From IMG/VR virus record IMGVR_UViG_2841531823_000001, positions 1 to 64,000 of that record: a stretch of 64,000 bases of DNA. The stretch is one strand, 5' to 3'. Under the pieces are notes generated by a model that was given only the letters and a program-made list of their open reading frames with translations, searched no databases and had not been told where the DNA came from. Both the position numbers and the translations under genes were made by a program. The stretch is from a virus (Duplodnaviria; Caudoviricetes). This document shows positions 2,781 to 46,667 of this stretch, piece by piece (the stretch's first letter is position 1; each line of letters opens with the position of its first letter).

Positions 2781-4277
2781 CTAAGTCCAGGCGATGTCAT
2801 CGAAGGACCACCCGGCGTTGTGATAGGTCATGCCGTAGATCCGCATGTCGCCGGTCCCATCCGCATTGAAGCTCGCCGGGGTAGACCACGACGGCGCCCG
2901 AACGGCGACGTTCATCTTCGGGTAGTAGGAGCCCTGCACCTCCATGTTCTGGTGGCGGGCAATCAGCCGGGAGCACAGGATCTCCACATCGTCGAAGAAG
3001 ATCGTCACCTCGTTGGCATCAGGATCGACGCAGGCCGAGTAGGTGTGAGGGGCGGTCCAGAGGGACGTGTCTGCGGCGACCCCGGGTAGGTGGGTGACGG
3101 TCCAGGCGGTGCCGTGTGCGCCAATCCGCCCCCCGGTCCCCCAATTCCCATAGTGCTGGGCGCAGGTCGTATATTTCCCCGTCATGGGGTAGTCTTCGCC
3201 CCACGCCTTGTTGAACTGCTCCATGATGTCGATTTCTGGCGGCCATGCGGCCGAGCCGTTGTCGTTGCGCCCGACCAGCCAGAAAGCGGGCCAGGCATAG
3301 GCCCGGTCCGCAGTGATCGCCCTCATCCTCCAGACCCCTCTCGGTCCGCAGGCCGCATCGAGGAACTGGCCCTGCAGCATGGCGGCCTGGTGCTTGTAGA
3401 CCGAGCTGTTGAAGGTGAAGTCAGACTCGAAGGCATAGGTGTGAAGCCGCAGATAGTTGCCGAACTCGTCTGCCCCGCGGCTGAATGGATTTTGCACAAC
3501 GGGCGCGAAGGCCGGCACATCTTCGTTGAGATAGATTCCGGTCTCTCCGTTGCCCGGCTGCGCGTAGCCGTGGGAAAGCCGGGACCGCCAAACGCCTTGG
3601 CCGTCGATCTTCCCGCTATCGTGCCACCGCTCTGTGAGCGGGTTGAAGTCGTAGGCGATGGTTGCGGCCGAGAGGTTCAGCTTGCGCAGCGGGCGGTGGA
3701 AGGCCGGCGTGATGACCTGGGGCGGCTCGGCGGCCGAGAAAGTTACCCGGCAGGTGACAGTGGAGCCCTCTGTGGCCGCCGACCCATAGCGGGCGAATGA
3801 CACGTTGAAGAACCTGCCATCGCTGAAGCTGATGCCCGCGCCGGTCGGGCGGGCAATCCTGATCCACTGGCGGGCGTCGTCACCGGGCGACCAGACCCAG
3901 CAGACCTGCGGGGTAAACGCGGCCTTAACTGCTCCGGAGGCGACGTTGATGTTCCCGCCATTAACGTTCGATACGTCGAGACGGACATAAGCGCTCTGGT
4001 GGAATTCGCCGATCACATCCACCGGAATCCAGAACTCATTGACCCCCGCCGGAATGGTGATCGCGGACGGGATGGAAAATTCGGCCTTGGCGAAGCCTTG
4101 CCACGGGAAGTCCAGAATGCCGTTGGTGATGACCAGTGGCACCGAGCCGGCCTCGGACACGAAGAAGGCGTCGTACTGCCCATTGGACAGCCGCGACGAC
4201 ATGTTCACCGGAAGAGCGACATCCTCGAACATCTGGATGGCTTGCGTGAGACGGTTGCGGATCAGGATGCGAGCCAT
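2781..4277 (-). CDS. glycoside hydrolase family 16 domain protein
   Basis: WPAFWL..WPPEIDIME (ExDxxE catalytic motif) in C-terminal half. Confidence 0.8.
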   Translation of the reverse strand: MARILIRNRLTQAIQMFEDVALPVNMSSRLSNGQYDAFFVSEAGSVPLVITNGILDFPWQGFAKAEFSIPSAITIPAGVNEFWIPVDVIGEFHQSAYVRLDVSNVNGGNINVASGAVKAAFTPQVCWVWSPGDDARQWIRIARPTGAGISFSDGRFFNVSFARYGSAATEGSTVTCRVTFSAAEPPQVITPAFHRPLRKLNLSAATIAYDFNPLTERWHDSGKIDGQGVWRSRLSHGYAQPGNGETGIYLNEDVPAFAPVVQNPFSRGADEFGNYLRLHTYAFESDFTFNSSVYKHQAAMLQGQFLDAACGPRGVWRMRAITADRAYAWPAFWLVGRNDNGSAAWPPEIDIMEQFNKAWGEDYPMTGKYTTCAQHYGNWGTGGRIGAHGTAWTVTHLPGVAADTSLWTAPHTYSACVDPDANEVTIFFDDVEILCSRLIARHQNMEVQGSYYPKMNVAVRAPSWSTPASFNADGTGDMRIYGMTYHNAGWSFDDIAWT

Positions 4278-5982: not shown

Positions 5983-8900
5983 CTACCCGTAGAGGCTTGT
6001 CGCGCCGAAGCGGGCCATGATCTCCCGCTCGAGCTTGTCGTTCAGCCTGATCCCTCCGCCCTCAGCGATGTCCTGTCCGGCCTTGATGCGCGAGCGCAGG
6101 GAGCGGCGGATCGTGTCGCCGGTGATCGCGAATTGCGGGTGCGCTCGATTGAACTCGGCCACCTGATCGAAGGCCTCCCGGCTCGGTCGCTCGCCCGCGC
6201 GCAGGGCCTTGGTGATCTCGTTCAGGATCTCGCGCCGGTCGTCCTCGATCCGCTTCTGGGCGTTCATGCGGCGGTTGTTGATCTCGTAGCGCTCCGAGAC
6301 CTTCGCCGGGCTGAAGCCGAGCGCCTGGGTGATCGCCTGCGCGGGGCTGACATCCTCAAGGATGGTGTCTCCCTTCCTGGTCGTGACGCCTTCGGTCATG
6401 TAGCGGAAGCCCTTCATGGCGTCGCGCACGAACTTCGGTACCGCCGTCTCGACGCCGCGATAGACGTTCCCATCGGCAGCAACACCGATGCCCGTGAAGA
6501 TGCTGGCGCCGATCGCCGGGACCGGGCCGATGACCTGCTCGACCCAATAAGCATAGAGGTCGTCGCCCTCCATTTGCCTGTCCGGTGCCCTGAACCAGAG
6601 TTCCGGCATCCCGAGGCGGCTTGTCAGGTCGATGCCGGTCAGGTGCCCAGGCACGCCCTTGAGGAACAGTCCGGCAATCTCCGGCCCGAAGAGACCGATC
6701 AAGCCCTGCTTGATCTCCTCCTCGACGCCATCGGCGCCATCGTCATCGAACAGACCGAGCAGGGCGGTAATCAGCGCATAGCCCCATGTGCCGGTGATCC
6801 CGGCGTGCAGCATCATAGAGGCCGTGATCCCGATCAGCTGCGTCCGCGCCTCCTTGCGCTCCTCCGCGGTGCGCCCGCGCACCATCTGGTGCATGTCGCG
6901 GAACAGCCGGTAGAGCATGTTGATCTGGAAGTTGCGGAACGTGAAGGCCACCCGGAGCCAGTCCTGTTGCAGCAGCCGCGGCCGCGCATCGGACTCGTAG
7001 TTGAAATGGGTGTCCCATGTCACCCTGCCGGCCGTCTCCACGGCGGCCTCGTGAGACTGCCCCTCGGCGCGGCCGAGCCGATAGGCGGCCAGGAACGTGA
7101 TCTCCCGGTTCATCCGCTCGGTGTGGTGGAACATGAACGCGATCGGCTTCATCAGCCGGGCGCGCAGGTCCGAATACTCTGCCCCGGCCTCCGCAATCCC
7201 GGCGAGGTCGTGGGACTGGCTCTTGTCGATGACGCCGCGGCGGTAGGCCTCGGCCAAGGCCCGTTTCTCGTCGTGCGTGAGGCGCTTGGAGTCGGCAGCA
7301 TGGCCCTTGCCGGAGGCGAAGTCGCGGAGCCCGCGCAGGAGCTCGCGCGTAACCCCCGTGACGTTCGCCCCCTTGAACCGGGCCAACATCACCGGCACGC
7401 CCACGATTGTGGTCTGCGACAGGTTCACCATGGCCGCCGCCGGCGTGGCGCCGAGGTAATAGACGAAGGCCGCCGAGGACGCCCAGGCGCTCCATGCGCT
7501 CGACTTCGGGTTCATCGTGAACTCGTGCCGCCGCAGGATCTCGTTGACCACGAGTTTCGCCCGGTTCGGATCGTCGGTCTTGTCCGCATCCACCTCGGCC
7601 TTCTCGAGCTCGTTGGTCATCTTCATGCCGAAGCGCAGGCGGGCAATCTGGTGGGCGCCGTGGAATGCCTTGACCCCGAAGACGCGGAAGGCGTCGCGTG
7701 TGAAGCCCTCGGTCCCCTTTCGGTGCAGGCGGCTCTTGCGGATCGACAAGTCCGGCATGGTCTCGAGATACCGCTGCCAGATCGCATCCATCAGCGCGTC
7801 ATCCTTGCCGGCGTCGCCCACCAGCTTCTCGATGTCCGCAACGAAGGTCGGGTCGATCATCTCCTTCATCTTGCCGGCGGCGTCGGTCATCACGCCCATC
7901 TGGACACGGGCGCCGGTCTTCTTCTGCTCGGCCGCGAAAGCCTGTTGCTCGCGCTCGCTCTCGAACTTGGAGAAGCTGACCACCTTGCCGTCCGCATCGC
8001 GCACGGTCACGAAGTAGTTGCCGAAGCGCCCGAGCGGGAAGTATGGCCCCTCAATCCGGTTGGACTCGAAGACGGACCGGAGCGCCGAGATCCGGGCCGA
8101 GGCGCCCCAGCCCGCGGAGCGCTTCACCGTCGCAAGGCGCCGCTTGGCCGCGTCCACCGCCTCGTCATATTCGGCACCCTCGAGCCCGTCGTCGCGGATG
8201 CGCTGCATCTCGTCGTCATAGGCCCGCTGCGCCCGCTGCAGGTTGACGCTCATCGCCACCCGCACGTTCTCGAGCACCGCGCGCTCCTCCGCGTCCGCCA
8301 TCTCGCGGTAGAAGTCCCTGACCTCCCGGTAGATGGATTGCAACGGCTCGGGCAGCGCGTCGAACTTCGCCTTCAGGTCCGCATGGGCCTCCTGCCCCGC
8401 CACGATCCGGGCGGCATAGGCCGAGGCGCCCTCGTTCGGCCCGCGCCGGGGCTTCACGAACGGCTTGGACGGGTCCAGCCGCGCGATGGTGGACTCGTGC
8501 ATGAGATCCATCATCGCTTGGTTCTGCTTCTGCCCTTCCTTGCCACGCATGGCCTTGCGCCACCGCTGCGCCACCTCATCGGCCCGGGCCTGCCGCTCGT
8601 TCCGTTCCGCCCCCATGTCGTGCTTCAGGTTCAGGTACGCGCGGATGCTCGGGAGCCGCTTGCCGAGCTCGGCAAGAAGCGGCTCCCCGGGAACCAGCGC
8701 CAGAAGGTTCGCCCGGCCCTTGCCGCCCATGGCGTCGGTGAGGATTTGGGAGATCAGGCCGCGCTCGGCCGCCGCCCCGCGAGGCCGGATCAGATCTGCA
8801 CGGAACTCGTGCCCCGTCAGGCCTTGAGCATTGCCTTGATCTGCGCCAGCGCCGCCGCGGCGTCCTTCCGCAAGGATTCGATCTCGGACGGCTTCAGTCG

Positions 8901-11900
8901 GCTTGAACCGCGCGAGGTATCGGGCTTCGGACTCGGTAAGCGCATCGAACCCGTAGCCCGTGGCGCGAATGAAGTCGGGTTCAATGTCGCCATGCTTGTC
9001 ACGGAGGGCCTGAAGCGTTTCGGGGGACAGTGCCAGTTTGGCGCTATACTGCTTGCCGGTCAAGGCCACAGTGCTGACCACGCGCCCGCCACCGGCCTCG
9101 ATGTGCCCCGCCAGCGAGGCGAAGGTGCCGCCTTGGGTGAGCGTATCGTCCACGACAAGGTAGTCTTGGCCGGCCGACACAGGTCCATCGAACTCAGGAG
9201 CGGCAAAGATCCGGTCCAGCCCCGGGAGCGCGGTGCGCCGCGGGGCGTTGGCCTGAACGATCTCGGCCGCGATATTCAAGCCGAGGCGACTCGCCAGGAC
9301 CCCTGCCGCCGCCAGCGGGATCTTGTTGCGGCCGGCGGCTTCCTCAGAGACGACCGGCACAACGAGGGGCTGGTGGGGGCCGAGTGCTTCCCGCACCCGC
9401 TTTACCAGATCGTCTGTCACCAGGTCGCGCGCAACCCGCACCGCCGCTGCAACATCTCCGGCCTTGGCTGCGGCATAGTCGGGATGGGTGGTGGCGCTGG
9501 CCAGGTCTCCTGCGATGATCGCGGGCCCCAGGCGAAGGGGCGCGCGCATGTCCGCTTCTGCTTCGCGAGACTGCCAGCGTCCATCGGGGCCGCGCGGCTG
9601 CGGGCCGCGCCCGCCTATCTCACCCGCTGCGATCCGCTCCATGGTCAGAGCCGCGCTCTGGAAGCCACGCCCGCGCAGCGCGTTGGCCAGAGCCAGGAAC
9701 AGCGCCTTCACCTTCTGGAAGGCCGCGGCAAGCGCCCCCATGTCGCGCCGGCCCTGCGCCCACTCGCGGTAGAGTTCGGCCACCATCTCCTCGGACCGGC
9801 CCGCGGTGTTCAGATCGGGATAGGCTTCTTCGACGCGCGCCACGATGTCGGCGTCCTTCCGCGCCGCGCGCACCAGCCCCACCCATTCGTCCCGCGTGAA
9901 CAGGCCGTATTCCGCCCCTCCGGCGTTCCCCGGGTCGCGGAGCGCGTGCAGGATCTCGTGATCCAGCGTGCCGCGCCAGTCGCCAGCCCCCACGCGCAGG
10001 CCGATGAAGCCGTTGCGGTAGTGCCCGAAGACGCCGGTGGAGCGCAGCCCGCGCACCGCCGCGGCCGTCACCCGGCGGGAGATGCCGATCTTCCGAAGCT
10101 CGGCCGCGGCCTCGGCCTCGACGCGGTTCAGATCATCGTCCGTGATCTCGCGCGGGTCGACGGGCTCGGCGCCGAAGCGGGAGTCCAGCCCCTCGTCCGG
10201 CGGCAGCAGGTCGTCCACCACCTCCGTTTCCGGCATGTCCGCGAGACGCGAGGCATCGCTCGCGGAAGCAAGCTCGGCGATCACCTCCTTGAGCCGCGTC
10301 TGCTTCTGCTCGTACTCCTCGGCCTTCGCCCAGGGCTTTGCCAGTTCGGCCTCAAGCTCCGGCTTTTCGCGCTGCGCCTTCTCCTTGCCCGCCTCGATGT
10401 TGGCGATGCGGCGGCGAAGGACGGACGGGCGGAAGTGTTCGAGAAGACGGTCAAGCCCCGTCCAGATTGGACCGCGGAGCGCGCCGACCGTGCCCCACAC
10501 CTGCGAGAACTGCACAACCTGCTTCTCATGCACCATGTTCAGGTCGATGGCGGCGCGGACCCCGAGATCCCCGGGCGATGTAACGATGTCGATCTCCATC
10601 GGCAGGCCCTTGAACGCCACGCCATCGATGAAGGCGCTGTCGGCGCCGTTGGCGGTCTGCCGGCGCACCTCGGACTCCAACAGTTCATCCAGCTTGCGCA
10701 CCGCATCTCTGATGTCGATGATCCGCTCGCCGCCGATCTCCATCTCAAAGTCTTCGGTGCCGAACTTGCGCCGGATCTCCTTCTCCAAGGCATCCACGCT
10801 CGTGACCGGCAGGCCCTCAATGTCCAGCTTGAACCGGGCTTTCTCCTTGTCGCCGCGCTGCTCCGCGATCTGCTCGAGACCGAAGTCATAGGCCGCTTGC
10901 GCGCTGTCGAAGGTCTTGCCCTCGATCGTGATGCTGCGCTGCGCCTCGCGCTCCTGCACGCCCGCGAACGCCTCCTCGACCACCGGCAGGTAGCCGCGGA
11001 CAAGCGCGGCATCCGCATCCGCATTCTCGAGCGTGCGGTCGACCTGGCGCAGCTGGGCGCGCAGCCCGTTCACCCGGTTGTTGAAGGAACGGCTCTGCAC
11101 ATCGAGCTTGTTCAGGTCGCCCTGCAGCGTCACCCGCTCCACCATCGGCGGGTTGCCGGTCGCAAGCGCGGCCATCTCCGCCATGTTCGCGGACTCCTCG
11201 TCCTCGAACTCCATGTTGAAGGAGCCGTCGTACTTGCGGATGCCGTTGATCGCCTTCAGCTTGGTCGCGTTCAGCGCCCACATCTTCGCGTCCACGGTCA
11301 TTTCCGTGGCGTAGGCCAGAACCTCGACCTCGAAACCGTCGTGCCCGTATTTCTCGAGGAGCTTGTTGCCCTGCCGCACGATGCGGCCCTCGCGCTGCTC
11401 GATGTCCGAGGGCTTCCACGTCACGTCGACATGGTGCAGCGCCACAAGCCGATCCTGAATGTTGGTCCCAGCGCCCATGCGCGGCGTCGATCCCAGGATC
11501 ACCCGCACGCTCCCGTCACGGACCTGCTTGAACAGGGCTTTCTTGGCCTTGTCGTCCTCGGCCTCCTGAACGAACCGGATCTCGGACTCGGGGATTCCGC
11601 GCTTCGCCAGAAGGCGCTTGATCTCGTCGTAAGCGTTCCAGCCACCCATGACGGCGTTGCGGCGGGCTTCCACGTCCTGCACGTCGAACTTGTCGAGTTC
11701 CTCGACGGCCTTCGCTTCACCGGCTTCGTCGCCCTCTGCCCGCGCCTTCTCGAGCTTCGCCACCCACTCGTCGTATTTGGCGACGAACGCCTCATCGCCC
11801 TTGGCCTTCGGCACGGACCGATCGAGGAAGATCACCTGAGTCCCGCGGTCTTCGGCCTTGTCGCGCCAGATCCGCGCGACGTTATCCACCACGGCCCCGA

Positions 11901-14900
11901 TCTTGCCGCTACCCTCCTCGACGCTGATGCTGGGATCGACGGCGCGGGCGTCCAGCGAGACCTTGCGCGCCCGGTCCATCAGCTTCAGCCGCTCGATGTT
12001 CCGCTCCTTCGGGTTGCGGATGCCGGGCAGGCTGTCGAAGCCGGACACGATGTCCTTCAGGATCGCCCGCTGGGCGGCGTCCGGTTTCACCGCGACCATC
12101 TCCCGATCGCCCTTGCCGGCCTTCTGGGACTTCACCGGCGGCACCGGGAACGGCGCCCCGTCGTTGTCCTCGGCAAAGGCCTTCTTGATGTCATCGAGAG
12201 GAACCGCGTCCGCCACCGAGTAGTAGAGGTCCATCAGGGACCGCATGTTCATCCACTCGCGCCCGAGGCGCGTCACCTCCTTCACGCTGCCGCTTTCGGT
12301 CGGCTCGTAGGCGGAGGCATAGGAGACGAACATCGCGCGCCAGGCGTCGAAGTTGTCGATTCCCATCTCGATCAACTCGTTCGGCGCGAGGTTGCGCAGG
12401 ACCAGATACATCTCGGCGACGGAGTTGCTGATCGGCGTGCCGGTCAGGAAGGCAATCGAGGTGCCTTGCCGGTCGTGCAGGGACCGGGATTTCAGGTGCA
12501 AGTCGATGGCCTTGGCCGAGCCGGTCTTGTTGCCCATCCCCGAGACGCCTTGCAGGCGAGAGGAATAGGACAGGTTCTTGAACTCGTGCGCCTCGTCCAC
12601 CGTCAGGTCGTCAATGCCCATCTCCTCGAAGGAGATCAGCTTGTCGCGGTTCCGCGCCCGGATCTTCGCAAGCCGTTCCTCGAGCTTCGTCACCAGGCGC
12701 TCGGCCTCGGCCACACCGAACGGCTTGCGCTTGCCGAAGGTGACAAAGCCGGCTTCTTCGGCGGCTTCCTCGGCCTCCGCGACCGCATCGCGCGCCGCCT
12801 TCAGTTCAGCCTCGACGTAACGCTCCTCGGTCGACGGATCGAGGTTGATGAAGCCGAAGGAGGAATGGCCGATGATGACGGCATCGTAGTCACCGGCCGC
12901 GATGCGGGCAAACAGGCGGCGCCGGTTCTTCGCCTCGAAGTCGGTCTTGCTGGCCGCCAGCACATTGGCGCCCGGGTAGAGTTGCAGGAAGTCGGACTTC
13001 CATTGCTCGATCAGGTGGTTCGGAACCACGATCAGCGGCTTCCGGGAAAGCCCCATGCGCCGCCGCTCCATCACGCGCGCGATGGCGGTGAAGGTCTTGC
13101 CGGCGCCGACGACGTGATCGTAGAGCACCGTGCGGTCGGTGATCCCGCGCCAGATCGCGTTGAGCTGGTGGCGCCGCATCTTGATCGCGGGATTCTTGCC
13201 CGGAAGCTGAAGGTGGCTGCCGTCCCGCTGCCGGATCAGGCGCGTGTTGAACTTCTCGTTGAAGATGTCGACCAGCTGCTCGCGCCGATCATCGGACTGG
13301 AAAGCCCAATCGAGGAACTCGTTGAAGATTTCCGTGCCCTTGATCTGGCTTTCGGCCGTGGCCTCCTCATCGACGTGGGTTTTCCCCTCGGAATCCCTGT
13401 ACGTCACCTTGAGCGGCGCGCTGTTCAGAAGGCGCTCGACAATCTCGGCCGGGCTCAATGCCCGGTCCGATGTCGCCCATTGTGAAGCAGGATTGCCGTC
13501 CGTCTGCACACCGAACAGGTTGCTGACCGGCTGGAATACCACCGCAGAGCGGCTGTAGCCCAGGTGCTTCAGGAAGTCGGAATAGACCTGCGGCGGGATC
13601 CACGTCGATCCGAGGTTCGGCGTGATGTCGCCCGCCTCCCATCGCGGCGGCTGCACGGCTTCCAGCGCCTTGATGTTGGCTTCGAGCCCGGCGGCGATGG
13701 CCGCGTTCAGCTTCCGGCGCACGAGGCCCGACAGGTAGAGGTCGGCCGGCTCCCAGCGCCCGGTTTCCGGGTCGAAGAACGCCCGCGGGTTCTCGCCCGC
13801 ACTCAACGCCTTCTCCGCCCCGGCCTGATCCGTGCCGAGCAGCTGGGCGATGCGCTCGAGGTCAATCTCCCCGCGCTCGGACAGCGAGACGGCGACGGCC
13901 TCAGACGCATCCTTGGCCGCGGTGATCGGGGCGTGGGGCATTGTCACGCGGCGAGACATGATGGCCGCCTTCTGCGGCTTGCCATCGACAATCTCCTCGG
14001 CGCCGAGCGCAAGAGCGCCGTCCGGCATCGTCAGTAGCATCCGGGCGGTGCTGGCCTTGGTGAGCGGGCCGTGAGCCTTCACGAACGTATCGTAGGCGGC
14101 GTTCAGTTTCTCCCGGTTCCGCTCGATCTGCTTCTCGGTGCCATCCTGCACTTCCAGCACGAACTGGCGCTTCATCAGGTCGCGGATCGGCAGCGCATCC
14201 CGCAGCATGGCGATGCGGTTCTTGCCCCAGCGGCTCGCCGCCGGAACATCGGCTTGATCGACCGTGCGGATGATCTTCTGGTTGCGCGTCGAAAGGGTGC
14301 CGTCAGCCTTGCGGACCTTGACCGGCTTGCCCTTCTCGTCCAGCACATCCTCCTGGATCTGCCACTTCCCGTCCCCGGCATAGGTGTAGTCCGGGCTGAA
14401 CGGGGTGTCGGCGGTCAACTCGATCTCGGTCAGGAGCGGGCGGCCGTCGCCCGTGTCCATCTCGACCACTGTCTTCAGCGTGTCGTTCTCGTCGACGCGC
14501 ACGCCGCCCGGCTCCGCGCCGGCAACCGCGAGGCGCATCGCCTCGGCCATGCGGGAGAAGCTGGCTGATGTACGCTCGGCCACCGCATCACGCGGGGCGC
14601 GCTCGCGGATGCCCGCGATGGCCTCTTTCAGTTTTGCCCCGAACTCTGCCGGGTTCTCCATCGTCACGTTCAGGTCGGCGCGGCCGTTCATCGTGCCGCT
14701 CGCGTCGATCTTCCCGATGACGGCGCGCGGGTTGCGCATGAAGTAGTCGTTGACGCTGATCTCCGCCCCGCTGCCGGCCGGGTCCGTGACCTTGCCGGAC
14801 AAGACCCAGCGCGCGAGGCTGTCGCGCAGGCTGGTGGCCTTCGACACGAGGGCAGGGTCGAGCTTGTCGTTTGCGAGAATGGCTGCGCCGTCGATCCCCA

Positions 14901-17900
14901 GGGACCGGGCGGCGAGATCCGCGGCCTCGGCCTGATCTTCAGTCCAGCGCCGGAAGAACAGGATGTCCGTGACCACCTCAGTCCGCGCGTTCTCCATGAA
15001 GGCGTTGCTCGGAAGCCGGATGGCGGCCTCGAGGTTGGCGAGCCGCGCCATGTCCACCCGGTTCTTCGGGTCCAGCGCATCCATGAGGTTGTGCGTGACC
15101 ACCATCGCCAGCAGGCCGTCAGGCGCCAGCGCCTTGAGCGAGGCGAGGAAGAACTGATTGTGGATCGTGCGGCCGTTCACGTCCGGCTGGTAGCGGAAGA
15201 ACAGGCGGTCGCGGCCGAAGGGCGGGTTGCCGATCGCAAGGGCAAAGCGGCCATCGGGCAGCGGCACCTTCTCGAAGCCGGAGTGCAGCACCTCATGCCC
15301 CGGGTAGAGCAGCTTGGCGATCCGCGCCGTGATGGAGTCGTACTCCACGGCGAGCACCTGGCTCTTGCCGCGCAGGGACTCGGGCATCAGGCCAAGGAAG
15401 TTGCCGGCGCCAACGGACGGCTCGAGGACCGCGCCGCCGGTGAAGCCGAGACGCTGCACGCCCTGCCAGACCGCATCGACCACCGTCCGGCTGGTGTAGT
15501 GGGCGGCTTTGGTGGAGTTGCGCGCGACCTTGATCTCGGACGGGTCCAGAAGCTCCTCGAGTTCGGAGACGCGCTTCTCCCATCCCTTGGCGATGCCCTC
15601 ACCATCGCCCGATCCGGCGACGCGGAAGGCGTTTTTCAGGCCGCCCCAGCCGACGTAGCGGGCGAGGATCGCCTGCTCGTCCGGCGTGGCCCGCCGGTTC
15701 TCGCCCTCGATCTGCTTTAGAAGGCGGATCGCCGCCACGTTGTCGGCATACTTCTGCCCCTCGGTGCCTTCGCCCAGGCGCAGCGCATCCGTGATGGTGA
15801 AGTTGACGGCCGGGATGTTGACCTTGCCGGCCTTGGCCTTCTCGGTTTCCGCGCCCTGCTCACCAACCTTGTCGGAATCGGCCGCGGTGTCCGAGACGCG
15901 GGCACGCTTGCGCCCGCCCTTCGGCTTCTTCTCCCCTACGGGTTTTCGGGTGGCAGCAGAATTTCCTCGGGGAGCACGAGTTCTTCCGCCTCGTGCTTCT
16001 GCATCCCCTTCTGCATCAGCGCGGCCACCTGCTCCGCTGCCCTCCGGCTCGCTCCCTGCGCCTCCGCGTTCAGCGACCCGTCCTTCTCCATCGCCCGGTA
16101 CATCGTCGGGAGATGCTCCTTCCAGTGCTTCAGCGCCATCCCGGCGTACTGCGTCCCCAGCATCTTCGGCCTCGCTTGTGGGTGCCTCATCCATGGTAGC
16201 ATCGGACTCGGTCTTTTTCGAGGCCGCCGCGCGCATCTTACGCACTTCGCGGATCACCTCCTCCGCGCTGTCCATGTCAGCCACGTCCTCGCCCGCCAGT
16301 TCCATGTCGTCGCGGATCTGGTTGTAGGCGTTGCGGGCGTAGGGCTGCGCCTGCTCGAGCGTGAGCCCCATCCTGTCGATCATGGTGTCGATCAGGGCGC
16401 GGAACCGCCGCGTGCCGCTCTTGACGTAGAGCGAGCCGATCTTGAACGCGACGGCGACCATCTGCGGGTCCAGGCCGCTGTTCACCTGGTTCTTGAGCAT
16501 CGCGAGGAACTCGGCCTCGAGCGCCGCGAGTTCGGCGTTCTCGGCCTCGGTCAGCCCTTTCAGCCCTTTCGGCTTGGAGGCGGCAGGCTGCGCAGCAGCT
16601 TTCGGCTTCTTCGGCGCCGGCTTCGGCTTCTCAGGGTCGGCCGCCACCGGCGCCGGGTTCTGTGCAGCCTCGCGCTTCTTCACCGGCTCGGTGGGCTTGG
16701 TCAGGTCGCCGGAGGCGAGCCAGTTCTTGAAGCCCTCAACGCTGGTCGCAGTGAAGCTGCCGATCCGCTGCCGGCCCTTGCCGTCCGAGAAACCGGCCTC
16801 GTAGATCCCCAGCGCGGCCGAGGTGGAGCCGGTTCCGAGGATGACCTTGTGCTCATCCCATTTCCCGGTTTCGGCATCCACCTGATTGACGATCAACACG
16901 AAATCGGAATCCGGCATGTCGCCCATATAGAAGTCGACATGATCGCCGTCCGCGCCCTCGGTGCGCAGAATCCGGCCGTAGTGCGCCGGCATCTTGACCG
17001 ACCATGCCGTTTTCCCGTCCGGCGTGGTCTTGCTACGGATCGAGCCCTTGGCGTTCTCGATCGAGAGCGTGAGGCCATTCCACGGCGCCTTGCCGGTCCG
17101 GTAGTTCTCGGCTTCCTTCTGGGCCTCGGTCGGGTTCGGATCCGTCTCGGCCGCGGCGGCGTCGATCTCCTCGCGGGTCGGGACGGCAGGCTTGCCGCCG
17201 CGCACCACGCCCACGCGGGCGAATGCCGCCTCCGCCTCAGCGATCCCTCCGTTCCCGAGGAAGGTTGCCCCGTGGAACGGGTTGTATTCGTCCCTGAACA
17301 CCGGGGCGATTTTGTCCAGATCGGCATCAGACAGCGAGCCGAGCCAGTCGGCATATTCGGCAACATCGGGGAAGATCCCCGTCCGCATGTCCTCGAGGCT
17401 GTTGTCGGGCTGGCCCATCACCCTCTTGAACAGGGCGAGCCCCCTGTTCTCGCGCCAGCTTTCCGCGGGGGCCTTAACGGACGTCTCGGCATAGCCAGCC
17501 AGCCACTCGGCCCCAAGATCCTCGCCGAACCAAGCAGGGGGCTTCCGAGGCTCGCCATCGCGGGCGGCCGCAGCGCCGGCTTCGCGAGCCTTGCGCTTCT
17601 TCTCCTCATGGCGGGCATCGGCGACCGGCACGGTTTCCGGCGCCGGGCTTTCCCCCGCCGCCGGCTGTTCTTGCTTCGGCTGGGCTACTTCCTCCCGCCC
17701 CTGCCGCCCTTCTTGCATCCCTTGGCCACTGGCCGTCTCCTTCTGCTGAGGTTGAGGTTGAGGTTGGGGGGTGTCGACCCTGGGCTCGACAGGGGGGGCG
17801 GCCTTGGCCTCGGCCAGTCCCATCGCCTGCTCCACGGCCGGCCGATGCTTGCGCGAGAAGATGAACCCGCGCTCGCGCTCATCCCATTTCAGCGACACGC

Positions 17901-20900
17901 CGGGCACGGCCGGGGGCGCATCCTTCGGCACGCCGCGCAGGACCGCGGCCTTGGAGCGGATGTCGGTGATCGAGGGGGCGGGGGCCTCAGCGGTCAAGGA
18001 TTCCTTGACAGGCGCCGGCGCTGCCTCCGCTTGGGAGAGGGAGGCGCGCTTCTCGGTCATGAATCTGTTGTACGCGCCCATGTAGACGCTATCAGCCGCG
18101 CGCGCGACCACGCGGCCGCCACGCTTCTCGATATATCGCCTTTCCGCCTCTTTGGCGTAGGCGTGGGCCTCCGGGTCTACTTCACCGGCAGGCATCGCGT
18201 CGCCCTCCGCTTGGGAGGGCGCCGGGAGGGTAGAGGGAGGAGCGGCGGGAGGAAGGGCCAGAGCCGGCTTCGGAGCCTCGATGGTCCCGGCATTGCGGAT
18301 CGTGCCTGCACGGTAGAGCCGGCCGTAGGCGTCGGTCAGCGCGCGGCGGCCGTTTTCGGACATGCCACCCCAAGTCATCGCCTTGCGGTGCTCGCGCTCG
18401 GCCGCTGGTCCGGCTTCGCGCAGGATCGCCTTGCGGGTGTCGGCATCGGCTGCATCCCACCACGGCGCGGTCCGCGGCACCGGGGGCGGCTGAAGGTCGA
18501 CCCCCACGGATGCGGCGGCATCCTTGCGGGCGCGGGCGTCTTCTTCGGGCGTGATGATCTCGCCCGTCAATGCCGGCGCAGGCTTGGTGCCTGCAGCTGC
18601 ACCATCCATATTGCCCGCAGGAGCATCGTCAGGCGCGATCCCGGCGGAAGCGGGTGAGGCTTCTTCAGGAACCGCTTGATCTTGCGCGCGTCCTTCTTCG
18701 ACAGTGCCCCGATCCTGCGCAGGAACTTCACCGACTCGTGCGCCGTCAGGCAGAACGGCAGCGCCGTCAGCCTCGGGTCCGACAGGTCCAGTTGCAGGTG
18801 CAGTTGCTGTTTCACCGGCGGCCTCCTCCTGAATCGTGCCCGCCTGATCGGCGGTCGGCACGGCCACGAAACCGCCGTCCTTCGGCTCGATCCGGTAGGC
18901 CGCCGGGTCGCGGCCCTGGTTCTCGACGGCGCGGCGGGCCTGCGCCTCGCTCTTGAAAGGGGTGCCGTCCTTCTTCGCGATGACGGCGGGCCGGATCTTC
19001 GACGCCTCCTGTGCCGCCGCATTGTCGGCCAGCATGTCGGCGTCGGCGACGGCCTTCAGTTGATCGTGGATGCCGCGCAGGCGGGCGTCCCAGCCGCGGG
19101 CGCGGGCTTGGTCCTCGATGATCGCGATCCGCTTCCGCGCCTCATCCGGCGTGAGGTCGGAGAAGTCCCCGGTGGCGCGGGCCGGCGGCTCGGCTAGGGC
19201 CGGCGCGGGCGGCATGGGCCCGGGCCCCTGCGGCTTTGGCTCCGGCGCAGCGGCGGCCGGCGGGTCTTCCGGCTTCGCCTTGCCGGTCTTGATGACCGGC
19301 TGCTCGCCCTCGCGGATCGTCGCCGGGCGCTCGAGCTCGGGACCGGGTTCGGTGGTTGGGGCCAAGCTGATGGAGACCTGCCCCGCGTCGAACTCCGAGC
19401 GCGGGATCTCGAGCACCTCGCCGTCGCTGGTCGTTACGGCGACGGCCATAGGCGATTGCGCAGTCAGGGTGCCGCCGATCGGGTTGCCATCCGGGGTCCA
19501 GACGCGAACGGCCGCGCCCGGCTGCACGCCGGGCAGGATCTCGCCGGGCGACAGGTTGGCCGCGGCGCGCATGGCCGGAGTGGGCGCGGGCGCTGGCGCG
19601 GCAGGCGCCGAGGGATTGGCCGGGGCGGGGGCCTGAGCGGCCATGCCGGCGTTGAGCGCGGTGCGGAGCGTGCCACCGGGCCGGAACTGCGCGGGCTGTT
19701 GCGTCGGGTCGCCCGCGCGATAGTCGCCGGGCTGGCGCTCGAATGCCGCGGGATCGCGGGTCGGGCCCGCGCCGAAGATGGTGCCGCCCGCCTCGGGCGC
19801 CGGGAGCGCGAGGGTCTGTTGCTCCGCCTCGGGGCGCGGAGGCTCCTCGACGTTCACCTCCGGCTCGTGCCGGCCCATCGCGCCAGCCACGCCGCCCACT
19901 GTGCCACCGACGATACCGGCGGCGACGCCGACCTCGAGATATTCGCGGCGGGCGTCCTCATCCCAGAGCGGCAGACCAGCTTGCGCCCGCTCGATCACGG
20001 ATTGACCGATCTCCGTCGGAACCTCGACCATCCCGCCCATTGCGGCGCCGCCGGCGGCCCGGCCGAGGATCTTCATCCCGGCCTTCTCGGCCACCTCACG
20101 CGGCACAGCGCGGGTGAAGATGCCGGTCAGGCCCTTCGCGGCAGGCTTGAGCGCGAGACCGCCAATCAGCATGTCACCGAAGGTATCAAGCGCCGCCTGC
20201 GGGGCGGAGGCAACGATAGCCTTGAGCTCGTCCACTCCCTCGGACGGATGCGCCTCCTTCTGGCGCTCCCGGTTCATGCCGTAGAAGAAGGGCAGGTTGG
20301 CGAGCGTGCCGCCGATCATGCCGCCCACGGCGCCGGCCGCGGTCCCGAGCCCAGGCAGTACCGCAGTGCCGATGGCCGCGCCGGTGGCTGCGGCGCCGAG
20401 CGAAACGCCCAGCTGCGGCACCTGTTGGGCCAGAGTCTCCCCAACGAACTTTGCCCCCGAGCCGACACCATCGACATCCTCGAGGCGCGTCATCCCTGCG
20501 CTTGCGTCCTCGATCTCCTGCCGGTTCCGGTCGGCCACTCCCGCGCCATATTCCGCCAGCCCATCGAGCCCGGTTGACCGGCCCACGCCCTCGATGGCCG
20601 AGCCAGTCGCCTGCTGAAGCTGGTCGATGCCCACGCCCACGGCGGCCCCGAGGCCGCCCTCCTTGGGCGGCTGCGCAGCCTTCAGCTTCGCCATCTGCTT
20701 CGGATACAGGGCCTCGCCGATCTCGCGCGCCCGGGTCATGAAGGCGTCAGCCTTGTCGCCCGCCGTCTCGCGGATCAGGGACTTGATGTCCTCTCCGGCC
20801 TGAATGCGCGGGCCGAGCTCGGCCGCGGCCTGCTCTGCGATGGCAAGCGCCTCGTCGGCCGTCTTCGCGCCGCCGGTCTCGGCCAGCGCAATGAGCACGT

Positions 20901-45674: not shown

Positions 45675-46667
45675 TCATTCAGCAGCCCTCGCGAATAGGT
45701 CGCCGGTGTGCCCGGCGACGGACAGGATCCGGTCGTGCATGAGATCGATGCTGTCCGGGTTCAGTTCGCACAGGATCGCCTTGCGCCCGTGCTTCAGCGC
45801 GACGCCGCCGGTCGTGCCGCTGCCGCCGAAGGGGTCCAGTACCACGCCTCCGACCGGCGCGCCGGCAAGGATGCACGGCTCGATCAGCTGCGGCGGGAAG
45901 GTCGCGAAGTGCGCGCCGCTGTAGGGCTTGGTCGTGACGGTCCAGACGGAGCGACGGTTGCGGAGACCGCCGACGCCGTTCCATTGCTCATCATTTCCGC
46001 GGGCCGTCCCGTCCGCGTTCCCATAGCTCAGTCGTGCACCGCGCTTGAAGCCGTTGCCGCTCGGGTGGTCACTGACGGCCGGCTCCTTGATCGCCTCATG
46101 ATCGAAGGAATAGCGTCGGCTCTTCGTGAGCATGTAGATCATCTCGTGCGCCGGCGTCGTGCGATCCGTCACGCTCGACGGCATCGGGTTCGGCTTGTGC
46201 CAGACGATCTCGTCGCGGAGCCACCAGCCGTCAGCCTGGAGCGCGATGGCGAGCCGGGCAGGGATCATCATGCGATCCTTCACCTTGAAGCCCGGCGGGC
46301 AGCGGTTGGCGCGCTTCGGATGGTTGGCTATCTGAGATCCGCGCCACGAAGCCGCCGCGGCTTCGGTCTCGCGGCGGCCCTCGGCGCCCCAGCTGCCAGC
46401 GTAGCTGTCGCCGATGTTGATCCAGCATGTGCCGTCATCACGAAGGACTCGGCGAACCTCCCGGAACAGATCGACCAGTCGCGCAATGAATGCGTCCGGG
46501 GTCTCCTCGAGCCCGATCTCGAGCGCCTTGTCCGGGTGATCGTCCGGAAGGTAGGAGCGTAGACCGAAATAGGGCGGGCTGGTGACGCATGTGTGGACGT
46601 TGCAATCCGGCAGCGTGCTCAGCGACGCGAGGCAGTCTCCGGGCATGATGGTGATGCCGGGGATCAT
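45675..46667 (-). CDS. DNA N4-C/N6-A methyltransferase (beta class)
   Basis: VTSPPY precedes VLDPFGGSGTT; HFATFP. Confidence 0.9.
   Translation of the reverse strand: MIPGITIMPGDCLASLSTLPDCNVHTCVTSPPYFGLRSYLPDDHPDKALEIGLEETPDAFIARLVDLFREVRRVLRDDGTCWINIGDSYAGSWGAEGRRETEAAAASWRGSQIANHPKRANRCPPGFKVKDRMMIPARLAIALQADGWWLRDEIVWHKPNPMPSSVTDRTTPAHEMIYMLTKSRRYSFDHEAIKEPAVSDHPSGNGFKRGARLSYGNADGTARGNDEQWNGVGGLRNRRSVWTVTTKPYSGAHFATFPPQLIEPCILAGAPVGGVVLDPFGGSGTTGGVALKHGRKAILCELNPDSIDLMHDRILSVAGHTGDLFARAAE

Follow-up and report, generated by a model that had tools for sequence, protein, structure and literature searches.

Small genes nested in the +1 frame of a giant DarB-like virion protein gene

The window analysed here (64,000 nucleotides, positions 1 to 64,000 of IMG/VR virus record IMGVR_UViG_2841531823_000001, a 96-kb provirus) carries on its minus strand (21009-5983) a gene for a giant DarB-like polyvalent virion protein of 5008 amino acids (aa). 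Comparison of this gene with its relatives indicates that three or more small conserved genes lie inside it in the +1 frame, under purifying selection, that the giant frame crosses them as unconstrained linker that is merely kept open, and that this layout is repeated across many phages, plasmids and conjugative elements. A preliminary description of the window had proposed four nested open reading frames (ORFs), here ORF1 to ORF4, and all four were confirmed in the +1 frame of the giant ORF, which itself has zero internal stops.

The fraction of codons ending in G or C (GC3) averages 0.855 over the giant gene, dropping to 0.40–0.47 at aa ~720–790 and ~1600–1680 and to 0.57 at aa ~4020–4060. 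The shift of this bias into the nested frame that had been described was present over ORF1 (0.85 nested vs. 0.41 giant), ORF3 (0.88 vs. 0.39) and the last 27 codons of ORF4 (0.89 vs. 0.44); the values for ORF2 were 0.93 and 0.64. The giant frame is indeed a low-complexity hydrophilic linker there, with G, A, E, D, P, R, Q and S making up 80–93% of residues vs. 60% for the whole protein. Among the 183 +1 starts in the giant gene, codon scores above 5 were confined to the interiors of ORF1, ORF3 and ORF4, and Shine-Dalgarno sequences (SDs) of 5–6 nt were found at nine, several of these outside any supported gene. The codon test is biased toward the +1 frame in GC-rich genes (130 matches in +1, 0 in +2), and is therefore not sufficient alone. 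Ratios of nonsynonymous to synonymous substitution rates (dN/dS) taken in both frames showed constraint on the nested frame and none on the giant frame for ORF1, ORF3 and ORF4, and homologue searches found conserved nesting in other giant genes for the same three. The proposal that small genes have been kept functional is supported for these three, which are conserved and under selection, but not for the 14-aa ORF2, which is without support. Comparison between loci shows dual coding, with selection on the small genes and linker character in the giant frame. Standard annotation hides these genes, as had been expected: none of 14 annotated giant-gene phage records shows them as separate genes. 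Three textbook ribosome-binding sites had also been described; those of ORF1 (AGGAGG) and ORF2 (AGGAG) are strong, but ORF3 has merely GAGG.

A TnpV-like gene ahead of the methylase

ORF3 (15936..16163, minus strand; 75 aa, ATG start) matches the Pfam TnpV family PF14198 at E = 6e–5, with 23.3–25.7 bits, under the gathering cut-off of 27 bits; its sequence marks it as a TnpV homologue, not a formal member of PF14198. Profile-profile comparison (hhalign) of the phage-type nested set with canonical TnpV gave a probability of 87% and E = 3.7e–6 over 70 columns. To survey its distribution we took loci selected by their methylase, the best 80 of 441 viral and the best 80 of 557 genome matches, and found with an iterated profile a nested +1 TnpV-like match in all 80 viral rows (71 of 71 distinct) and in 62 of the 80 bacterial-genome rows. 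Because some of these phages seeded the profile and its iterations ran over the very loci surveyed (from 157 matches in round 0 to 198 in the final round), these counts are not fully independent; Pfam provides a check, in that all 41 Bacillota nested ORFs submitted were canonical TnpV, and 23 of 71 phage-type members matched TnpV at E ≤ 0.01. Loci selected by peptide all had the match nested in +1 within a long ORF (37 of 37), and 126 loci selected by the phosphoribosyltransferase (PRTase) or the N-terminus, with 4–10 kb flanks, gave neither a TnpV-like nor a methylase match. ORF3-type genes co-occur tightly with methylase-SNF2 genes across the loci compared, as ORF4-type genes do with PRTases.

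This +1 ORF also stands directly ahead of the methylase in Pavtok, PEp14, Stean, Itty13, Atu_ph08, VvAW1, SopranoGao, POI1126 and Mwe-JY07; Bcep22, Gervaise and 8P, and probably Y7 too, have divergent forms of it. It is left unannotated in every one of these records. Six plasmid methylase genes were also compared: three have a nested +1 ORF at the TnpV position (Ruminococcus, E = 1e–4; Campylobacter, weak; Stutzerimonas, by position alone), one is preceded by an annotated gene of weak similarity, and the other two have neither. The Campylobacter case, a pTet SNF2 gene of 30% GC, holds a 159-codon +1 ORF with AGGAG (locus L349, 3992-4471) and a weak TnpV-like score; an overlap of this length was open in 0 of 5000 trials under the null. 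The phage-type profile matched 1786 clusters at 50% identity among 1.84 billion representatives.

That ORF3 is a real gene is almost certain. Under a start rule blind to the SD, 138 distinct nested ORFs were scored (three more had no start), with 132 ATG and six GTG starts, and an SD of at least 4 nt preceded 117 of the 138 vs. 8.4% of other +1 ATGs. For 74 of ~96 phage-type cases the start is conserved, 13–14 codons ahead of the core, and the SD spacing is 4–12 nt. Over 39 disjoint pairs, dN/dS in the nested frame was 0.25 for the phage type (27 pairs) and 0.23 for Bacillota (12 pairs), while the giant frame over the same overlap gave 1.94 and 1.59 and the methylase control 0.13 and 0.11. By synonymous resampling, the giant frame would be expected open by chance in only 3.9 of 123 cases. 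A coupled restart of the methylase after the ORF3 stop was also considered and rejected, an ATG being nearby in four of the 138.

A control for the open giant frame came from 45 TnpV matches in Bacillota genomes, a subset of those listed and including five genomes picked via the loci of our own survey. Free-standing copies numbered 26 full-length and five partial, and each of the 26 holds 2–12 stops in what would be the giant's frame; the 14 that lie within long ORFs hold none. The giant frame is therefore selected for being open, not for its residues. One Blautia genome alone contained 12 tnpV copies. A TnpV tree with a midpoint root, built on 115 columns and on 71 rows in which some loci appear twice, interleaves nested with free copies; it requires six changes of state, at least four of them forced, and places some free copies inside nested clades. 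Nesting of TnpV therefore looks old and reversible. The suggestion that the giant gene grew by reading through former neighbours fits with TnpV being also a free-standing family, but a simple one-time read-through is not established.

The predicted model of ORF3 is, with good confidence (pLDDT 89), a four-helix protein. Its best fold match among 48,161 chains was PG0816 (PDB 2apl; Z = 7.9, root-mean-square deviation 2.1, 68 residues), with the next best at Z = 6.0 and a Foldseek TM of 0.56 to PG0816; a Z under 8 may reflect merely a common helical arrangement. PG0816 presumably belongs to Pfam DUF1896, which one nested member matches at E = 0.008. For this link no sequence match came from PDB or from a Pfam search of the genome, and we take the modelled PG0816-like fold as suggestive, not proof. 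Two other candidates were rejected: P1 Ulx as a homologue, and a match to PHROG 938 as a general fusion, which most likely stems from an in-frame fusion in the PBC5 record. In that record (locus L002, ~8170-8482) sequencing error or natural change has broken the giant gene across two frames, and the TnpV-like ORF ends orf33 in frame.

Nested genes at the PRTase end and toward the N-terminus

ORF4 (8817..8993, minus strand) overlaps the end of the KfrC-like PRTase domain, and encodes a conserved C-terminal helix (8900-8820, minus strand) recognised by PRTase-locus comparison. Fifty-eight distinct loci have a PRTase end that can be recognised, a count that omits ten loci lacking that anchor and includes many close kin; in 57 of them the +1 frame reads L-x-x-S-E-I-x-S-L and then runs through a charged helix to a stop. 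Over the overlap dN/dS was 0.23 in the +1 frame vs. 1.66 in the giant frame (26 pairs), and just upstream of the selected part the giant frame gave 0.18, so that constraint flips to +1 within a few codons. The start had been placed at ~8945, which our comparison does not favor. The frame is open for at least 33 codons upstream in 58 of 58 loci, the Leu codon of the PRTase ‘LT’ never yields a +1 stop (58 of 58, 16.9 expected), and a His codon gives a +1 ATG in 33 of 33 vs. a 50% background; therefore the ATG at 8993, giving 58 aa and lacking an SD, is the more likely start. We regard ORF4 as very probably a real gene.

An ORF4-type peptide was found in all four plasmid PRTase/kfrC genes examined (IncP-1, IncU, Acinetobacter and P. 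syringae plasmids, pRA3 included), and also past the stop of one free-standing PRTase gene. Such unannotated +1 ORFs overlap the PRTase-domain end in pRA3 kfrC (locus L352, 301-1440) and at loci L291, L293 and L294. In PMC8124265, KfrC toxicity is reported to depend on the DDT motif and kfrC1-249 is reported as not clonable. The kfrC1-249 cut lies within the nested ORF of pRA3 (whose stop is at codon 260), deleting its last ~10 codons. The failed cloning fits with an antidote role, with the accompanying loss of the C-terminal domain as a confounder; on this circumstantial evidence, ORF4 may neutralise the toxic PRTase.

ORF1 (18567..18815, minus strand; 82 aa, GTG start) combines a perfect SD with the strongest codon shift of the set (codon score +56). 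Direct searches of Pfam, PHROGs, the protein database, the ESM Atlas and our first locus set gave no match, and the giant-frame neighbourhood of ORF1 found none either when scanned against viral and metagenome sequences. Homologues surfaced only among PRTase-fetched loci, 19 of which, forming one close clade, carry a nested +1 homologue with an SD (E = 1e–5 to 1e–3 in that set). Across seven pairs drawn from this clade and from similar ORFs in other giants, dN/dS was 0.33 in the nested frame vs. 1.28 in the giant. Positional analogues in the Pavtok, VvAW1, Bcep22 and Gervaise types are linked to it weakly (hhalign P 0.0006–0.002), and one family is therefore not proven. The model has three helices (pLDDT 71) and no fold match at Z ≥ 5. 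With its selection and its SD, ORF1 too is a real gene with high probability.

ORF2 (17685..17729, minus strand), a basic ORF of 14 aa, is present as described, with a small codon score (+4.6) and no homologue in our searches. Other giants have short basic +1 ORFs (30–58 aa) with SDs in N-terminal linkers (L221, L224, L229, L231, L237 and kin; L047; L072) that are possible analogues, and ORF2 thus cannot be dismissed, doubtful as it is as a gene.

Further nested frames were noticed in other giants. Loci L095 (giant aa ~700) and L097 (aa ~1044) have ~205-aa nested +1 ORFs that look by eye like HNH homing endonucleases, with the giant frame open across them. Another nested +1 family, outside our window, has 15 members of 58–75 aa with the motif P-x-x-x-x-D-T-L-x-x-W, and sits ~1890 codons past the methylase start (L002, L006, L045, L060, L068, L079, L084, L102 and others). 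At L261 (giant aa ~695) and L240 (aa ~865) a long tandem repeat reads as an LQH repeat in the +1 frame of the giant gene.

The giant gene and possible roles of its nested genes

The giant gene ends the morphogenesis block of the provirus, minus-strand terminase, portal, capsid and internal virion genes leading into it, and by tblastn resembles DarB-like genes in 103 phage records. Its product joins in one polypeptide an InPase domain (16717..17127, minus strand as are all that follow; PF18823, E = 3e–43), an LPD36-like region with N6-adenine methylase directly after ORF3 (14962..15771), an SNF2-type helicase (11368..13110; PF00176 and PF00271), a KfrC-like PRTase with the DDT motif (8863..9516; ~44% identity to KfrC) and LPD39 (8170..8751; PF18858, E = 3e–59). 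It shares with DarB-like proteins the GWGG form of the LPD36 GxGU motif and an NPPF adenine methylase fused to SNF2/Helicase_C, along with InPase, PRTase and LPD39 in one chain and the upstream terminase, portal and capsid genes; LPD36 and the polyvalent family that includes DarB-like proteins are described in PMC5512222 (Iyer et al. 2017). The homologue gp69 of phage JC1 is virion-associated, with 51 peptides (PMC9144972), and by likeness to it the giant here is predicted to be packaged.

An antisense frame open for 2450 aa (6133-13485, plus strand) over the giant gene is probably no more than a shadow cast by GC-rich coding. The PBC5 and Itty13 records annotate comparable antisense frames as genes; the latter (MW460249, locus L004, 3625-15961) annotates three and misses an open giant sense frame of >4100 codons. 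A separate DNA methyltransferase gene (PHROG 67) lies at 45675-46667 on the minus strand of the window.

We infer that the giant late mRNA is read twice, for the 5008-aa virion protein and, from internal +1 starts, for small helical proteins. Across the nested stretches selection acts on the small gene, as the sequence comparison shows, and the giant frame needs only to avoid stops, yielding a disordered G/A/E/D/R/P linker between modules. The frame is always +1 probably because giant stops would need T at the third position of small-gene codons, which can be lost synonymously and free of cost; G/C-ending codons of the small gene would give hydrophilic residues in the giant frame. Each small protein could be the partner of one giant module, made together with it. 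The TnpV-like protein might serve the methylase-SNF2 module as a chaperone, or as a loader for DNA delivery by packaging or conjugation, and ORF4 might restrain the toxic KfrC-like PRTase in the cell that makes it, leaving it to become active only once injected. Ulx, required for packaging of P1 DarB, offers an analogy. We give about an even chance to the view that the small proteins are co-translated partners, acting as chaperones, loaders or inhibitors of the enzyme module next to them. A little short of that stands a general rule in which modules travel as cassettes of enzyme and small partner, giant linkers are the –1 frame of partner genes, and one gene holds both an injected weapon and the chaperones or antidotes that match it; the methylase-helicase would have TnpV, and KfrC-type PRTases a nested antidote.

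Several observations weigh against the arrangement as we read it. The loci are akin to one another, so that our counts are not independent. Fifteen of the 80 genome rows had no TnpV-like match (seven of these had <2.3 kb upstream), three had one outside the present ORF, and P1 darB, a Ti-plasmid gene and an Enterococcus gene have the methylase-helicase with no detectable nested TnpV. Free TnpV outnumbered nested in the Clostridia sample (26 vs. 14), and among ten neighbours of free copies that were scanned, three were relaxases directly upstream and none was a methylase-SNF2. ORF4 lacks a conserved SD (best dG ≤ –5 in 14 of 58). Moreover, full-length kfrC, ORF4 included, is reported in PMC8124265 to be still toxic when overproduced, and kfrC1-249 loses the C-terminal domain as well.

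Some of this would suit small genes that are translated but independent of the giant's domains, with TnpV acting on DNA or the transfer machinery and nesting serving only timing and co-transfer, an explanation that we consider possible yet unlikely. In the three relaxase-upstream cases (L365, L366, L367) free tnpV follows a Mob_Pre or MobA relaxase gene by 39–61 bp, an Xis-like role has been postulated for TnpV in Tn4451 (quoted in PMC3158075), and several methylase-helicase genes do without a TnpV-like ORF. Yet the nested form always lies within a methylase-SNF2 gene across phyla, ORF4 tracks the PRTase into plasmids, and the modelled four-helix bundle of ORF3 has PG0816 as its best match. 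Ribosomal frameshifting into the +1 ORFs, which would give the giant alternative C-termini and shorter forms, is decidedly improbable. It is most plausible for ORF4, with selection confined to the last ~30 codons and the SD not conserved, and is favored too by the in-frame TnpV-like end of PBC5 orf33 and by some long database proteins that terminate in the domain; against it stand the conserved, SD-spaced start of ORF3, the upstream opening of the ORF4 frame in every locus, with an ATG there in most, and the lack of any shared slippery run seen at ORF4. A last reading, in which captured genes have left the +1 ORFs behind as relics, or GC-rich coding DNA throws them as shadows, and they are no longer expressed, would agree with the +1 bias of the codon test and with ORF2, but is very improbable overall and already largely refuted for ORF1, ORF3 and ORF4 by purifying selection in close pairs, conserved SDs and nesting that stays intact in AT-rich hosts such as Campylobacter.

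Dual coding of this kind reveals that widespread mobile elements carry a layer of genes missed by annotation, places TnpV in a fixed context and accounts for the low-complexity linkers of DarB-like proteins, which are stretches of dual-coding DNA. Deletion, truncation or recoding of darB-like, kfrC or integrative and conjugative element helicase genes can unwittingly remove a second gene, and the folding, packaging and silencing of giant virion enzymes in the producer cell becomes a directly testable question.

Comparison with known systems

The giant is like other DarB-like polyvalent proteins in its LPD36-methylase-SNF2 dyad, its InPase, PRTase and LPD domains and its late-gene position; the portions of PMC5512222 and PMC9144972 consulted make no mention of genes nested in such giants, and ‘TnpV’ and ‘overlap’ are absent from the main text of PMC5512222, whose supplement could list TnpV as a neighbour. 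The literature searched, which covered main texts and few subscription papers, yielded no account of genes nested inside giants of this type. P1 darB differs in that no nested gene was seen, and P1 Ulx is not homologous. TnpV of the Tn4451 family is known as a free-standing transposon gene, and we found no description of a nested state; ORF3 is shorter, lacking the YLIP segment at the N-terminus and some of the C-terminal insert. PG0816 may share its N-terminal helical arrangement with ORF3 (Z = 7.9) and has an extra C-terminal half. KfrC of IncU and IncP-1 plasmids shares the PRTase with its DDT motif (~44% identity) and the same +1 ORF at the domain end, an overlap unmentioned in the portions of PMC8124265 consulted; unlike KfrC, the PRTase here is a domain of a virion protein.

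Among nested genes more broadly, Rz/Rz1 is similar in having a small gene wholly nested out of frame on the same strand, and comS is nested out of frame inside srfA. The Rz stretch that hosts Rz1 serves as a linker. Unlike either, the giant gene here contains several unrelated small genes, in a set that varies with its domain content. Nested genes, the host family and TnpV were all known already; what appears new, against the literature searched, is the nested set inside these giants.

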